Below, piece by piece: positions 6,301-57,838 of a stretch of 64,000 bases of DNA. Source of the stretch: Eledone cirrhosa (taxonomy: Eukaryota); contig OZ024741.1 in assembly GCA_964016885.1 (NCBI GenBank), forward strand, positions 221,774,001 through 221,838,000, read 5' to 3'. Numbering within the stretch: the stretch's first letter is position 1; each line of letters opens with the position of its first letter. The notes beneath the pieces are model-generated. The model did not search any database. It worked only from the letters and a program-made list of their open reading frames with translations, and was not told where the DNA came from. A program made the position numbers and the translations under genes.

Positions 6301-9300
6301 ACAACAAATGAACCAACACCACAACACAATTACTACCAACATGACTGAGACCATCCAAATAATCGCTATAAATATGATGAACCATTTCTAGTTGACACAT
6401 TGCATAAACAAATTATAATGCCAAAACAGGACTCACCATTTTCAAGAGAGGACACATAATACTTAAAGACATCATTAGTTACTTTCTACATATCTTAAGC
6501 TAAAGGAAATGAGCAGATCATCAGATCAAACCAAGGAACCAATGCACCCATTAGCCTTTCATTGCTAATGCTATTTGCTGGTTGCAATTCCTAGCAGGTG
6601 GGATATGAACTTAGAATGCACAGAGCCAGATCAAATAACACAAAAATTTCTGTCTAATTCTTTAACAACACTGCCAATCTACCTCTCCTGTCTACCTTAT
6701 CAACCCCAAAAGGATGAAAGGCAAAGTTGATCTTGGCAGGATTTGAACTGAAAGCACAGTGAGCTGGAACAAATACTGAAGCATTTAATCCAATGACCTA
6801 ACAATTCAGCTAATTCACTACCTTAAACTTACCTTAAATTTTTATTATTCCCTCTAACCTTATATTTACACACACATATATATATATATATGTAAATATA
6901 AGGTTAGAGGGAATAATAAAAATTTAAGGTAAGTTTTATATATGTGTGTGGGACAACTCCTGTCTAACCCATGCTAGCGTGGAAGATGGACATTAAACAA
7001 AGATATTTTCTTCGGGGTTATAAGAGGCTTAGCTCTGTTTCTCGACCGTTATATCGTGTGACTATCTCCCCCTCCGCCTTTTGGGATTCTTTCTCACGTC
7101 GTGTGGACGCGTTCTTGAAGCTAGTAAAATGAGGTATCCTCTTGATAAGTCGGCAGACCTCGCAAGGACTCTATATCTTTATGATGTATTGTTTTTGTTT
7201 ATGCCACGAAACTACGTAGTCGAGGAATCTAGGAACAGTTTAGGTATGATACATTTCATTACTAATTATATCTAAATGTTTCTTCTCTCTTCATAATATA
7301 TATATATATATATATACATAAATTCAAAAACGAATGACATATACAAAAATATATCAAACATTAACAGGAGATAATTTAAATGAACATACTACCTTTTTGT
7401 AATTATATGTTCTTACATTCTTTGCAAATTATCTCCTGTTAATGCTTGATATATTTTTGTATATGTCGTTCATTTTTGAATTTATAATAAGTGCTCAGAA
7501 TTATTTCTTGGAACTTTCCTTTACAGGTGATATGGTGCATGTTTGTGATTATCTCAGACACATCTTTATTTCCCCCTTGCTTCTGATGGACACCACCAGA
7601 GGGTGTTAGCCCCAGTGCTTTTTGCATAGCTACGGCTTCCTAAATGTTTACCTGTAAACATATAGTGTTTCTTAAGAAATACAAAATTTCTATACATATA
7701 TATATATTCATCAACTCTTACTAGAAGGGCAGGGTAAGCAGACATTAAATGATGATGGTGGTGGCAGTGATTGTCAACCAGATATGAAAATTCAATTGAA
7801 AATACTTACGAAGGTTCATAATAAAAGTGGACATCTTTAAACTCAATTTTTCCTTCTTTCAGTTGCAATTCTTTAGCACCAGGAATATCACTAATCTGAA
7901 GTCCATCAATGTAGAGTAATTATTAAATTTATATATCACTATGTCAAATCATTTTACAAAACTTTCTATTAAACATTTTATATACCGAACAGTGGTTCCT
8001 AACCTTAACACTCCTAAGGACCCCTTTTACTTAACCCTTTCATTACCATATTTCTATAATTTTCAAATAAACTTGAAAATATTTAAGAATCTGGATGGAT
8101 TTAACTTTTTCATTATAAAGTTAGTGTTTGGAGGATAACTTAACAAATTTTCTGACACAAAAATAATGATGGAAGATTTACATTTAAAATAAGTTTTGTA
8201 TCATAAAATCAAAGAGTTTCAGATGGTTTGGTATTAAAAGGATTCCTAAAGACACCCCACTCAGATTGTTATACAGTGAGAATGATAATTAAAAGTGAGA
8301 TATGATTATATTGGGTTGGCCAAAAACATCCGTTTGGTTTTCTTAGTAAAAATGAGACGGTTTTAAACCCAAACCAATTTATTCAATCAATGATATATTT
8401 GTCATTTCATTCCAGTACCTTCCACCATCTTCTAGGTAGATTCATTATTCCCTGTTCAAAGATTACCTGTTTTACTGGCAAAGAACCCTTCCAAATGAAT
8501 TTTCACATTTTCTGAAGAATTGAAGGTCCATTCAAAGAAGAGACTGAAACAGGTGAAAATCTGAAGTGGAAAGGTTGGAGGAATATGTAGGGTGAGGCAA
8601 AACTTCCCAGCCAAGCCCTCGTAACTTCTGCTGCATCTGCAAGTAAGTATTTGATCTGGCATTGTTTTGATGAAAGACAATATCCTTTCGATTAGCAAGT
8701 TCTGGACGTCTCTGGTGGATCTGCATTTAATTTATCCAGCTGATCACAGTACACATCCAAACTGATGGTCCTGTTTGTAGGAAGAAGCTCATAAAAGACA
8801 ACACCCTTCCAATCCCATCAAATTGAAAGCATAATCTTCTTTGGGTGAAGTTCTGCTTTAGAGGTTGTTTGTGATGTTTCTTGGCACTTCCCCCCATGAT
8901 CGTTTTCACTTTACATTGTTATAGACGATCCATTTTTCATCTCCAGTTACCATTTTCTTAAAAAAAAAGGGAACCCAAACATTGACCCTGCTAATGTAAC
9001 CAAGTTTATGCAGATGGTTTTCAACATTTGATTTGGAAATCTGGAGAATATCTGCGATCTCCCAAATTGGCCAATGCCTTCTGATTGCAATTTGGTAAAA
9101 GGCTGTCAATGTGTGTGTGTGTGTGTGTGTGGAGTTGAGTATGGAGGGGTCAGTGTTTATGTCCTGTAACTTAATAGTTTGAAAAAATAAGATTGATAAA
9201 AGAAGTCCCAGACTTGAAAAGATGTGTACTGGAATCAATATGATCAACTAAATCCCTTCATGGAAGTGCCCCAGCATGACCAGTCTAATGACTGAAACCA

Positions 9301-40090: not shown

Positions 40091-43000
40091 GAGGTTATAT
40101 TTAATTTGTTGGGATTCAACAAGCTTAAACATTTTTATAACTGATATAAAGCACTCAACAAGTTAGTGGAGTAAATACACAATATATTAATAAATGGAAA
40201 CTCTATTTATAAAACCATATTTATTTTATTATATATATTTCAAGGGCAACCAAGGCAAATTATGGTGCGCTTTCATCAGATAAAATACAGATTTGTTTTA
40301 TAAATAAATATTGACATACCCGGAAAAAGACAACCTTAACGGTTGGAGCTTCCTGGATAGTGGAGATAATATTTTATTGAGGGTAATACAAAGGTATGAG
40401 TGAGTATGCAAATGAGTGTCCGAAAAGTTGAAAAGATAACGGTTTATTTAAATTAAACTGTTGGAAGAAGAGGATATGTAAGGGAGAGAGAAAAGAAAAA
40501 GAAAAAGAAAAGGAAGGAGAAAGAGAGAAGAGGAAAGAAAAAACGATTATACATAGTGATAGTGAAGATAGCTTAATATTAAAAATTTAATTTAATATTA
40601 ATAATTAAAAATTAAAATTAAAACAGAAGTATTTATATTATATTAGGATGTATTAGTAATAATTGTTTCTACGTTAGGCACAAGGCCAGCAATTACCCAG
40701 TGCATTACTGGTACTTTCTTTTATCAACCCCATAAGGATGAAAGGCAAAGTCAACCTCGGCGGGATTTGATCTCAGATCGTAAAGGGACGTAACTATGCT
40801 GGAAAGCATGGCGTCCGACCCTCTAGAGATACTGCCAATCCACCACCCTTGTATTAGTAATAATATATTCGTTTAGATGTGTATGTTATGGATTATAAAT
40901 TATTTAAATAAATATAAAGTATTTTACATTAGAGAAAATCTAGTATAGTTTATTTGATTAAAGTAAGTTTGGCAAAATTATATTTATTAATAGTTGTAAG
41001 TCAAAACTTAAACATCAAAATAATTCCAAATTTATGAAAATTTACGAGAGTTTACAAAGGAATAACTACTTAATTATATTATAAAAACAGTAAGGAAGTA
41101 TAAAGGAAGTTAGAAGTGATTTTTTAAGAACTCAAATGACTCCAAGGATACATTAAAAAAAAACCTTCAAAAAACCTTCTTTCAAAAAAAAAATTTTTTT
41201 TATTTTTCAAAAATTTTTTATGAGAAGTCATAAATGTTATAAAATTAAAAAATGTTATCTTAAGAATATAATTAAAACATATACAATTTTTTAATAGTGT
41301 TAATCTTAAAGTAAAAGTAGAGAATAATTATAAAATAGTTAATTTTTTAGATGTAACTTTAAACCTTAATACTGGTCTTTATTATCCATTTCATAAAATC
41401 AATGAGAATTTAAACTATCTTAACTTTAATTCCAATCACCCCAGATCCGTTAAAAACATTATTGTAAATTCTGTGCAGCAACGTATTTCTAGAATTTCAG
41501 CAAATAAAAATATATTTGAAGATAAGGCACAATATTATAACGAAGCATTAAGTAGAGCAGGCTATAGTAATGAAATTAAATACATTGATAATAAGGATGT
41601 GCCAATTAACCATAACTATAAATATAATAGGAAACCTTGCACTAACTCCAAAATCAAAAGAAGAAATAGAACTAGAAATATATTATGGTTCGCTCCCCCT
41701 TTCTCATTAAGTATTAAAATTCCAATAGCTAAACTATTTTTGAAAGCTCTTGATAAGTGTTTTCCTAAGACACACAGATATTACTCAATCTTTAATAGAC
41801 ATACTATTAAACTCTCATATTCCACCACTATGAATTTAGCGCAGAATATTAATAGAATTAATAATAGAAACTTAAAACCTAACCAGAATAACTTTAATAC
41901 CTCCAGCAATATCCAATATAATGTTACGGCTCCCAATAATATAAATTCAGATAAATGTAATTGTAGAAATAAATCTAACTGTCCTCTAAATAATAACTGT
42001 TTAGTTAAAAATATAGTATACAATTGTAATGTCAAAACCAATGAAAATTCCTTTAACTATGTCGGCTCTACTTCCACAGACTTCAAATCTCGTTTCAATT
42101 ACCATAAATGTTCCTTTACGAATATTGGTAAACAAATCTTCAACTTCTCTATTCAACTTATTATGGAACTTAAAATCCAAGAATATTAACTATTCTTTAT
42201 CTTGGGAAATTATCTCCAAAGCTCCTTCATACACAGCTCTATCCAAAAATTGCTCCCTTTGCATTGAAGAAATATTTTTATACTAAAAAGTAAGAACTCT
42301 ATTATTTTGCGTAATAATTTATTTAGTTCTTGTAAACATCGTTTAAACTCAACTTTTAGATATATATATAAAATGTAATATATGGTTAATCTCCTTTACA
42401 AATGTTTTCTATATCCAACCACCTACAACTTCATCCTTCAGATTATATCTATATATGATTCATATATATTTAATTTACTTTCTATTATCTCTACTTCATA
42501 AATACACTTTATATTATTACACTTATCAATTGATTATAACCTTTTTATATGACTATTTGAAATTCTTTTAAGAAAAATTTTCCTTGAAAGACTTTCTGAA
42601 GGTTTTAGAAAATTCTTTGAAAGTTCCTTTGAAAGATATGGAAAAACCATTATTTTCATATCTTCCAATATTTTATATCATCAAATATTTTTAATATATA
42701 TCCAAATATTTATATATATGTGGAATAACATATGATTTTTATATATATGTGGAATAACCTATGGTTTATGTTTTAATTATATTCTTAAGATAAAATTTTT
42801 TAACTTTATAACATTTATGACTTCTCTTGAAAAATTTTTTTTAAAAATTTTTTTTTGAAAGCTTTTTTGAAGGGGTTTTTTATGTATCCTTGGAATCATT
42901 TGAGTTCTTAAAAAAAAATCACTTCTAACTTCCTTTATACTTCCTTACTGTTTTTATAATATAATTAAGTAGTTATTCCTTTGTAAACTCTCGTAAAATT

Positions 43001-54440: not shown

Positions 54441-55156
54441 ATACTAGGCACTACAAACTGTCAGTCGGAGCAGCCGATAAAAGCAAAACATCGTTTATTT
54501 CCGTATTACTACCTACTTTGGCGATATCCAATTTTAGCGGCCTAAATACTGCTTACTTGCTGTAGTTGCTGCTTACTTCAATGTATGAGACTATTTCAAC
54601 AAATTTACATTCCCCTTTTTTTTAGCCGTTAAAAGAAATATAGATTTATTTATTGGTTTTTTTTTGCGATTTATTTGCCACTGGGGCATATATTTCTTTA
54701 TTTGCCCCTTTTTTGTTTTTTTTTGCGATTTATTAGCCTTTTGGGGTCACACACACCCCCGTAGAAAGTGTGCGACCTTTCTGCCAGGGAGCACAGAGAG
54801 AGGGGGGTGCTCCCTTCTTCTCTTACCTGTACAAGCCGATATAGAGAGATGGCCCACTTACACGGGCCATTATTGCTACTTTCACCCATCTTTCATGGAA
54901 TTGGCTGGGACTGAGCGCCTTTTTCTCCACTTTGATCCTTCTTTCGAAGTGGTATCGGAAGAAGAGGACCATTTGTTGGCCGGCGACATATCCCCACAGT
55001 TTCCTCGTTGCAAACGCATCTGGGACATTTCTTTTCCAAGGGGTTTCCGTCCCGGAATCCGTGTCTGTAGAGCCTTTCCCGAACGGGCAGGGCCCCTCGG
55101 TATAATAGTAAGTATTAGTGGTTGTAATAAAAATGCAATCAAAATGTAATAAATAC

Positions 55157-55292
55157 CTTCACTGATTTCTTTCCTTATATTATCAACAGAAGTTGGTATG
55201 TCACCCAAAGTTCGCTTTGTATGTTCCCGAATAGCAGTGAATTTTGATAAAACTGTTTCTAATTCCTTCTCCACAGTAAGACAACTATCCAT
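55157..55292 (-). pseudogene. RMND5: Captured first coding exon of RMND5/GID2 (CTLH E3 ligase subunit), copy 1
   Basis: MDSCLTVEKELETVLSKFTAIREHTKRTLGDI..IRKEISE resembles, from memory, the RMND5A N-terminus (MDQCVTVERELEKVLHKF); it ends at a phase-1 G|GTATTT donor. Confidence 0.75.
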
Positions 55293-55465
55293 GTGTAGTC
55301 CAAAAAGATATAAATCTTTTAAAAAATTATAATAATTCTTTATTATTATTTTCTTTTTCTGTAAATAATTATTTTTCTATATATCTCAAACCCTGCCAAA
55401 CACCACATCTGTCTATCTGTAAATTTAAATGACTGTTCTTTCATACTTATCCTCTTCAACTACAC

Positions 55466-55601
55466 ATGGATATTTGTCTTACTGTGGAGAAGGGATTAGA
55501 AACAGTTTTATCAAAATTCACTGCTATTCGGGAACATACAAAGCGAACTTTGGGTGACATACCAACTTCTGTTGATAATATAAGGAAAGAAATCAGTGAA
55601 G
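55466..55601 (+). pseudogene. RMND5: Captured first coding exon of RMND5/GID2, copy 2
   Basis: Mirror of copy 1 with S>I and E>G changes; same donor at 55602. Confidence 0.75.
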
Positions 55602-55791
55602 GTATTTATTACATTTTGATTGCATTTTTATTACAACCACTAATACTTACTATTATACCGAGGGGCCCTGCCCGTTCGGGAAAGGCTCTACAGATACGGA
55701 TTCCGGGACGGAAACCCCTTGGAAAAGAAATGTCCCAGATGCGTTTGCAACGAGGAAACTGTGGGATATGTCGCCGGCCAACAAATGGTCC

Positions 55792-56130
55792 TGTAGCAGT
55801 TGCCTCCCTGGTTGTGACTCACAACCCCAATAGATTAACAACATCTAGACGGGAAGTAGAACCCTTTCTGTAACTTCCGGTCAGAACCCTATAAAACTAA
55901 CAACTTTAAGTTCTCACTCTCTCATTTGCCCTTCCGGCGCCTGGCCTTCGCCAGGCGTCTCGCGTTTGCCTGGCAATCAAAACGGTAACTACTAACTTTG
56001 CTTCATTCTATCATCTATTTCTTTGACATGTCAACTATACTGTTCTATATATATCCATGATTGTTAATTAAATATTATACACACAAACGATGTCTCTTTG
56101 TTACATTCATACACACAAAAATTCTCGATA
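55792..56130 (+). mobile_element. Solo LTR related to the 282-648 LTR
   Basis: TGTAGC...CTCGATA; 4-bp TSD GTCC; shares TCTAGACGGGA, CTTCCGGTCAGA.CCCTATAAAACTAACAACTTTAAG and the GC hairpin. The empty site is preserved in the other arm at ~54960-54980. Confidence 0.9.
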
Positions 56131-57838
56131 GTCCTCTTCTTCCGATACCACTTCGAAAGAAGGATCAAGGCGCTCAGTCCCAGCCAATTCAATGAAAGTA
56201 GCAATAATGGCCCGTGTAAGTGGGCCATCTCTCTATATCGGCTTGTACAGGTAAGAGAAGGGAGCACCCCCCCCTCTCTCTGTGCTCCCTGGCAGAAAGG
56301 TCGCACACTTTCTACGGGGGTGTGTGTGACCCCAAAAGGCTAATAAATCGCAAAAAAACAAAAAAGGGGCAAATAAAGAAATATATGCCCCAGTGGCAAA
56401 TAAATCGCAAAAAAAAACAATAAATAAATCTATATTTCTTTTAACGGCTAAAAAAGGGGAATGTAAATTTGTTGGAATAGCCTCATACATTGAAGTAAGC
56501 AGCAACTACAGCAAGTAAGCAGTATTTAGGCCGTTAAAATTGGATATCGCCCCTACTTTAATGATTAAAGTGGAGTTAATTAAATGAAACATTTTTTTTT
56601 TATTAAAGCATATAGATGTAAGTGGAGTTACTTAAATGAAAATATCACGCGTTTTTTTTTGTTTGTTTTTATTAAAGCATATCGATGTAAGTGGAGTTAC
56701 TTAAATGAAAATATAGGTGGCCCTTAAAAGGGCCAAATTAGAAAACAAATTTAAGTTAATTAGAAAACAAGTCATGGTTATCAAATAAATTGGATTTTAT
56801 CATTTATATTTTCATAGTCATGGTTATCAATGTAGAAAACAAGTCATTTTCACCAACAGTGGAGTTACTTCTGACAGCTAATACCATGAACTATATTTTC
56901 ATAGTCATGGTTATTAATGTAGAAAACAAGTCATTTTCACCAACAGTGGAGTTAACTTAAATGAAAATATAGGTGGCCCTTAAAAGGGCCAAATTAGAAA
57001 ACAAATTTATGGTTATCAAATTTTTTTCACCAACCCTTTATGAAGAAATGTTTAGAAAACAAATATTTTTCACCAACTTTATTCAAAAGCATGGATACAG
57101 TCCACATGGAGACAAGAGACAGTTCCCATGGAGATTGATGGTATCTGCTGTAGTAGCAGTAGCGATGGTTAATTCCATTAGCAATTTTCATTTAAGTTAA
57201 CTCCACTGTTGGTGAAAATGACTTGTTTTCTACATTGATAACCATGACTATGAAAATATAAATGATTAAATCCAATTTATTTGATAACCATGACTTGTTT
57301 TCTAATTTGGCCCTTTTAAGAGCCACCTATATTTTCATTTAAGTAACTCCACTTACATCGATATGCTTTAATAATAAAAAAAACGCGTGATATTTTCATT
57401 TAAGTAACTCCACTTACATCTATATGCTTTAATAAAAAAAAAAATAATAATAATAATAAATTTTAAAAAACGCATGAAAAAAAAAATTTCATTTAAGTAA
57501 CTCCACTTACGCGTGGTAGTAATACGGAAATAAGCGATGTTTGACGAATGACGTCACCTTCGCCAGCTTTCATCGGCTGCTTCGGTTGATAGCTAATAGC
57601 GTTGTAGTGCCAAATACTTTATTTTTATGTAATTTTATTCTAGAAATATATTTGAGTATTTTATGTAAATATTTTTTTTCAATTGGAGAAAAAAAAAGTA
57701 TCCTTTTATCGGTCTAAGCAAGTGTTTGGTACTTGTTTATGTTGTAAGGCCGCATCTGACACCCAATAAGGCCCCATTTTCCCAACAATACGGGGCACAG
57801 TTAGCATTTATATTTTACGAAAGTAATTACAAACGTAA

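Follow-up and report, generated by a model that had tools for sequence, protein, structure and literature searches.

The window, a 64,000-nucleotide stretch of the 3.0-Gb Eledone cirrhosa genome (C2:221774001-221838000), holds a 2,032-bp foldback element at 54520-56551. Its termini are GGCGATATCC...GGATATCGCC (GG...CC), and the perfect 8-bp target-site duplication CCTACTTT stands on both sides, as an initial annotation of this DNA had claimed. The features of the element and of the sequence around it are as follows.

54447..57611, no strand: enclosing foldback of a different Merlin family, matching the two-transposase foldback L066
54512..54519, + strand: left 8-bp target-site duplication
54520..56551, no strand: non-autonomous Merlin-family foldback element, 2,032 bp, with the same ends as transposase-bearing copies
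54520..55299, + strand: left arm, 780 bp
54520..54734, + strand: outer part of the left arm, with the Merlin terminus followed by short repeats that include the LINE terminal motif
54735..55101, - strand: left copy of an internally deleted LINE 3' end, covering the end of ORF2, zinc-knuckle region included, and the 3' UTR (a free copy has RVT_1 and zf-RVT matches)
55102..55156, - strand: left copy of the beginning of RMND5 intron 1, GT donor included
55157..55292, - strand: RMND5 coding exon 1, left copy, 136 nt
55300..55322, + strand: remnant of Merlin sequence found just 3' of the transposase in longer members
55323..55465, + strand: RMND5 sequence upstream of the ATG, probably 5' UTR, 143 nt
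55459..56551, - strand: right arm, consisting of 750 bp, the LTR insert and the insert's duplication
55466..55601, + strand: RMND5 coding exon 1, right copy, 136 nt
55602..55656, + strand: right copy of the beginning of RMND5 intron 1, GT donor included
55657..56341, + strand: right copy of the LINE 3' end, interrupted by the LTR insert
55792..56130, + strand: insert read as a solo LTR, 339 bp, TG...TA, 4-bp duplication GTCC, later insertion
56552..56559, + strand: right 8-bp target-site duplication

Architecture of the element and its neighbors

Inverted arms of about 780 bp around a 159-bp spacer had been proposed, and alignment of 54520-55299 with 55459-56551 gave a left arm of 780 bp and a center of exactly 159 bp (55300-55458). 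Pairing out to 55310, reported by a repeat finder, was rejected as chance pairing, the arm alignment ending at 55299. With the 339-bp insert set aside, 7 substitutions and about 34 gap columns separate the arms. The description of the element as almost entirely two arms thus holds in that the inverted arms are real, but it was overstated by a sixth, the LTR insert having been overlooked. Both exon copies start with ATG and are followed by 55 nt of intron including the GT donor, much as the initial annotation had it, and, as it had also proposed, the cargo lies within the inverted repeat. Within the center, the remnant at 55300-55322 meets the left arm at a 3-base AGT overlap. This is a deletion junction, which sets the upstream part of the left arm against sequence from behind the transposase.

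About half of each arm is LINE sequence, about 370 bp from the 3' end of a LINE. In the older copies L102, L103, L108 and L120, the RMND5 intron is joined by a short overlap to a 5'-truncated LINE end that continues from the final portion of ORF2 through the 3' UTR to the terminal motif; from the subtype to which the 2,032-bp element belongs, 188 and 41 bases of the LINE piece, and more, have been deleted. Pfam searches did not recognize the internally deleted pieces, and a free copy was used instead, which gave an RVT_1 match and a sub-threshold zf-RVT match. The source LINE is abundant (3,944 candidates), its best free copies being 85-87% identical.

The insert that interrupts the right arm at 55792-56130 is read as a later-arriving solo LTR of a common LTR element, because it starts with TG, ends with TA and is bounded by a 4-bp duplication. 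This repeat had 1,934 candidates genome-wide; among the 40 that were scored, direct pairs about 1.65 kb apart were frequent. The source element is young, common and about 2 kb long, and the same LTR is also inserted in the family members L225 and L228. Elsewhere in the window, 747-1825 is similar to the interior of this small LTR element (see for comparison the translations of the L228 insert), and a 305-aa AT-rich ORF at 41272-42189 reads by eye like a Penelope-type retroelement remnant. The other ORFs of at least 110 aa also look like retroelement remnants by eye, a level of inspection that short host exons would escape.

The 2,032-bp element sits within the left arm of the enclosing foldback, which has a near-perfect 8-bp duplication (AAATACTA/AAATACTT) and internally repetitive arms. 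An exact search for the empty site inside this enclosing Merlin gave 0 matches, which is uninformative since the host repeat is variable there. Its relative L066 is 2,837 bp long with one transposase in each 1.07-kb arm, and inverted transposase pairs also occur at L063 and L064. Foldback formation thus seems common among the Merlins of this genome.

RMND5 cargo and membership in Merlin

The exon had been assigned to RMND5, and this identity holds. The captured-exon peptide aligned to residues 1-43 of human RMND5A in a PDB match that is weak alone (E 0.013); a Pfam search with the 46-aa peptide gave no match, and a word-seeded search found no longer relatives. At E<=0.001 the peptide had 92 relatives; one of these, 392 aa long and named RMND5, contains both a CTLH and a RING domain. 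Searching the genome for CTLH returned 9 matches, read as four CTLH-complex genes and one weak match, of which the pair on contig C5 reads as RMND5. In the 100 kb around it, the predicted parental locus was found intact and single: exon 1 at C5:79536336-79536471 (85% to the captured peptide, E 3e-23) is followed by further coding exons and a RING exon. Window positions 55323-55649 match C5:79536177-79536519 at 89.5% over 343 contiguous columns, a stretch that takes in 143 nt ahead of the ATG, the whole exon and 48 nt of the intron; most of the 159-bp center is therefore RMND5 cargo too. The upstream piece (55323-55465) has a 14-16 base deletion relative to the parent, and homology to the parent breaks off sharply at both joints. 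The host sequence between the inverted repeats thus has an identifiable, transposon-free parent. Retention of the start of intron 1, matching the parent, supports the proposed capture at the DNA level, or at least of unspliced sequence, unspliced RNA being formally possible. A parent-type 24-mer is unique in the genome; its element-type counterpart was counted 93 times, at 65 loci on 20 contigs, and 27 of these loci carry divergent exon pairs.

The family that bears this cargo is a Merlin family: its members have 5'-GG terminal inverted repeats and 8-bp duplications, and members with the same ends encode a DDE_Tnp_IS1595 transposase (PF12762, 46.3 bits against a cut-off of 27). The IS1595-type partner expected by the initial annotation was found in transposase-bearing members that share both ends and cargo. 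PF12762 candidates numbered 447 in the genome, several of them inside the same arms as the family. A search with the family transposase gave 85 matches among the 150 scored of 489 candidates, and 30 loci were fetched. At 17 loci, representing 14 distinct elements, the transposase was at least 82% identical, and all 14 elements carry RMND5-derived sequence just 3' of it, L104 having only 47 nt. Among Merlin relatives at 43-65%, such sequence was present at 0 of 13 loci. An ordinary Merlin architecture, with lengths of 1.5-1.9 kb, similar ends and 8-bp duplications, was seen in three of these relatives, and two of the three already repeat 3' non-coding sequence in mirrored form at the 5' end. 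The cargo-free relatives L096 (1033-2920) and L098 have long open transposase frames of 321 and 338 aa, and the 3' arm of L096 contains tandem repeats. A complete transposase was present in 0 of 9 translated family copies, none of which extends to the C-terminus found in the open frames of L096 and L098. Five named relatives appeared among 40 transposase matches (two Octopus proteins, 40-49% identity).

The exact 17-base terminus occurs 444 times (214 + 230; control 0), corresponding to about 220 elements. Other copies with different duplications had been predicted, and among 63 distinct two-ended elements the 8-bp duplication was perfect in 45, had one mismatch in 10 and three or more in 8; none was perfect at 9 bp, and 44 different duplication sequences were represented. 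The cargo-bearing element has therefore re-transposed, several loci having distinct duplications. The accompanying prediction of different cargo failed. No second host cargo was found in the 48 loci surveyed, which comprised about the first 100 of the 444 termini and selected loci, and the same ends were seen with no other host gene. Eight foreign inserts were rejected as cargo, as all look like nested transposable elements (LINE-, Penelope-, Helitron-, SINE- or LTR-like, by our labels, from translations and repeat matches). Because different cargo was not found, the family would represent one capture event that was amplified, not the repeated capture seen in Pack-MULEs.

Family members are often nested in one another (L163, L190, L199, L218), and tandem copies occur at L009/L010, hinting at local hopping or a preference for the family's own arms. 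Three copy pairs 0.3 Mb apart on C1 (L197/L195, L198/L196 and L192/L193) share duplication and flanks. They are segmental duplications or unpurged haplotypes, and copy counts are slightly inflated by them.

Other explanations, by which the palindrome would be an assembly artefact, would stem from segmental duplication of RMND5 or would belong to Mutator, are hardly conceivable. Long inverted repeats are prone to mis-assembly, but substitutions, indels and an LTR flanked by a duplication of its own set the two arms apart, the 27 divergent pairs are independent and have different flanks, and in short-read contigs from the same species the element-type exon had a rough depth of 641 compared to 5.2 for single-copy flank. 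Duplication of an RMND5 segment is refuted by the sharp ends of homology at the two joints. A Pack-MULE is defined by a Mutator transposase and a 9-11-bp duplication. The Mutator alternative raised by the initial annotation is excluded by the linked IS1595-type transposase and the 8-bp duplication.

Origin of the mirrored arms and fate of the exon

Members of the family differ in how the cargo is arranged. The long version lies on the 3' side only in L224 (2,894 bp) and L225, and cargo flanks a single transposase on both sides in L091, L094, L101 and L105. L065 is a 3,828-bp palindrome with two transposases, as is L228 in part. The 1.7-kb transposase-less form is the subtype of the 2,032-bp element, and there are many shorter deletion forms of 0.4-1.2 kb. 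The longer, less-deleted and older cargo copies keep about 85-90 nt of RMND5 intron, compared to the 48 nt matching in the 2,032-bp element, together with a fuller LINE tail. In a transposase tree rooted on cargo-free Merlins, the family has 100% support, and two of these long-cargo copies, L103 and L108, branch first together with L104 (74-80%).

Taken together, we consider it probable (roughly 0.85) that a Merlin family captured the RMND5/LINE cargo once, mirrored its arms and spread, with the exon as a neutral passenger. The RMND5 cargo would have been captured behind the transposase gene, initially on one side only; the whole cargo end would then have been copied over the other end to give mirror arms; the transposase would have been deleted, leaving the 3-base overlap in the center; and the resulting element would have spread by cut-and-paste using the transposase of longer members in trans. 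Capture, mirroring and deletion probably all proceeded by template switching while a hairpin-prone element was being repaired or replicated. We propose this because the RMND5/LINE and deletion junctions have short overlaps and because rare variants are common to both arms; a template-switch model has been argued for multicopy Pack-TIRs (section 9, PMC8277862). The order of steps, the template switching and the mobilization in trans are inferred. Against this order, the long-cargo copy L102 falls inside the later group, and the order has tree support of only 65-80%. The short 5' ends of L224 and L225 could alternatively be deletions, not the ancestral state, and no pre-capture copy of the family was found.

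The arms of an element exchange sequence, patchily. In 20 two-armed elements, 22 of 46 variants present in two copies were common to the arms of one element, where 2.6% would be expected (13 of 32 candidate loci, which lacked two full arms, were left out of the comparison), and deletions are mirrored in both arms of L065, L091, L101 and L105. Mean divergence was 1.9% within and 2.1% between elements, and the own arm was nearest in only 1 of 20. In a survey of C1 picked by terminus, divergence from the majority ranged from 1.1% for the exon (n=13) to 3.0% for the termini (n=69).

A variant of this explanation, compatible with Merlin mobility, is that a single capture brought in both the LINE tail and the RMND5 piece from an ancestral RMND5 allele whose intron 1 contained a truncated LINE. 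The alternative is a two-step origin, with insertion or capture of the LINE into the Merlin end and a separate switch to RMND5. In the family the LINE piece lacks its 5' part, stops at the natural 3' end of the LINE and has the same sense as the gene, and among the family members examined none has a longer-5' LINE and none carries RMND5 without the LINE. Today's parent intron contains no such LINE, however, and a parent-type contig from a second organism (organism B) runs through the junction to 6584, while that of a third (organism C) stops at 6530, short of it. The short overlap at the joint fits a template switch and a LINE 5' joint equally well. We regard the single joint capture as unlikely, though by no means far-fetched.

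Whether the exon does anything for the element or its host was judged from the changes it has accumulated. Six fixed changes separate it from the parent, all of which alter an amino acid (the probability that none would be silent is about 0.23), and since the exon peptide from another genome equals that of the parent, these arose on the element side. Among 71 exon copies there were 49 missense, 11 silent and 6 stop changes, a silent share of 17% compared to 21% by chance. The pattern suggests that the exon likely drifts neutrally, riding as a passenger. A role, in which the mirrored exon is kept as a source of double-stranded RNA (small RNAs or an editing substrate) acting on RMND5 mRNA or splices into neighboring sequence, appears rather remote. 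The inner hairpin has a very stable fold (-645 kcal/mol, compared to -183 +/- 8 for 20 shuffles), divergent exon pairs recur at 27 loci, perfect matches to the parent of 48, 39, 22 and 21 nt lie between the fixed differences, and 65 of 71 full exon copies retain an intact ATG, reading frame and donor. That intactness is nonetheless expected at about 1% divergence and is inflated, as the copies were mostly chosen by likeness to the 2,032-bp element; the changes are neutral in kind, LINE and Merlin stretches pair equally without singling out the exon, and most elements have lost it, the exon word being kept by only about 65 of some 220. In run X5, whose kind is not on record, a 1,435-nt contig follows the parent up to the donor and leaves it precisely there, and the same base is the end of a contig with the element-type exon (depths 31.5 and 99.5). 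Splicing could produce such ends, as could read-through or carry-over of DNA from a 100-copy repeat.

At least half of the element's words were present in 5 of 16 listed runs, from two organisms, with a share of 0.46 in a third. Chimeric transcripts are known for a share of Pack-TIRs; among the runs listed with the element's words, none is recorded as RNA. Over about 610 bases, 52 letters and 39 gap columns distinguish the single-copy flank of organism B from that of E. cirrhosa (about 9%). Its element-type contig (depth 250 compared to 16) differs from the parent by 14 substitutions and 16 gaps, and the E. cirrhosa family by 15 substitutions and 16 gaps, the listed differences agreeing between the two. 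Related species, organism B and more weakly organism C, thus appear to hold near-identical cargo, the region compared being L085:6177-6519. Because the copies in this genome are younger than the host divergence suggests, transfer or introgression of the cargo between species is a lead, alongside an older shared burst or contamination of one run. Element-type contigs of organism C (depth about 3 compared to 4.5) and the small-share runs X7-X9 were not taken as evidence. At L085:6520-6560, the intron piece of the element has small insertions in common with the parent intron of organism B that the E. cirrhosa parent lacks; the cargo therefore preserves an older state of the intron. A Merlin that rewrites one end from the other may have made, from a single exon capture, about a hundred mirrored RMND5 copies that passed between related species with nearly unaltered cargo and feed double-stranded RNA against the RMND5 (CTLH/GID ligase) message. 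We consider this a long shot; if true, an animal would have the first known Pack-Merlin, and with it a dispersed hairpin locus of the transposon's own making.

Comparison with known systems

Merlins are characterized by GG termini, an 8- or 9-bp duplication and a DDE_Tnp_IS1595 transposase, and the supplementary rows for Merlin-1_DR and Merlin-N5_DR give a TIR size of 1000 (PMC8101967). The RMND5 family resembles these two in its GG termini, 8-bp duplication, IS1595 transposase and kilobase arms, and differs in its captured host exon; the available text of that source mentions none, "captur" occurring there only in a reference title. Two recently active Merlin families are described among the repeats of Octopus vulgaris, with no occurrence of "captur" in the available text (PMC13282606).

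Among plant elements, the tomato Pack-MULE PM-ZIBP has 14 copies with one gene fragment, and acquired sequence can enter the extended TIRs of plant MULEs (PMC3310237). The RMND5 family is likewise an amplified family with a single gene fragment, whereas PM-ZIBP is a Mutator element of a plant in which the cargo is single and central. Pack-MULEs capture many different genes, in contrast to the one host cargo found here.

Multicopy Pack-TIRs in animals comprise 4 cases among 370 in 100 reference genomes, the example shown having 3 copies, and the carriers are mostly hAT and TcMariner; Ssk-FB4 of Drosophila melanogaster is a foldback with ~700-bp TIRs in 4 copies (Tan et al. 2021, PMC8277862). 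"Merlin" is absent from the main text of that paper and is only a column head in the supplements searched. We found no Pack-type Merlin or RMND5-carrying transposon in the literature searched, a Repbase entry for the family remaining possible. The statement of the initial annotation that it knew of no animal Merlin-type Pack family agrees with that literature as regards Merlin, although animal Pack-type elements have been published. The combination of a Merlin, a mirrored exon and high copy number was likewise not found in that literature, its components having been published separately.

Multicopy capture by cut-and-paste transposons in animals has been reported as rare and low-copy, and the RMND5 exon is present here in at least 93 copies. 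These findings add Merlin to the carriers of captured genes, reveal arm-to-arm copying in sequence data, and call for caution in RMND5 annotation and read mapping in this lineage. The one-sided, two-sided, fully palindromic and deleted forms in one assembly provide natural stages for testing models of capture and foldback formation, and the mirrored cargo is a defined test case for silencing or editing of a parent gene. In its behavior the family works like a multicopy Pack-TIR. As in the Pack-TIRs and Ssk-FB4, a TIR transposon carries a genomic piece of a host gene and has re-transposed, with different duplications, far from the parent, and as in the Pack-TIRs its joints have short overlaps. 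Unlike those Pack-TIRs and Ssk-FB4, it has a Merlin carrier, at least 65 loci, transposase-bearing members and cargo in both arms, and it gives no sign of a functional product.
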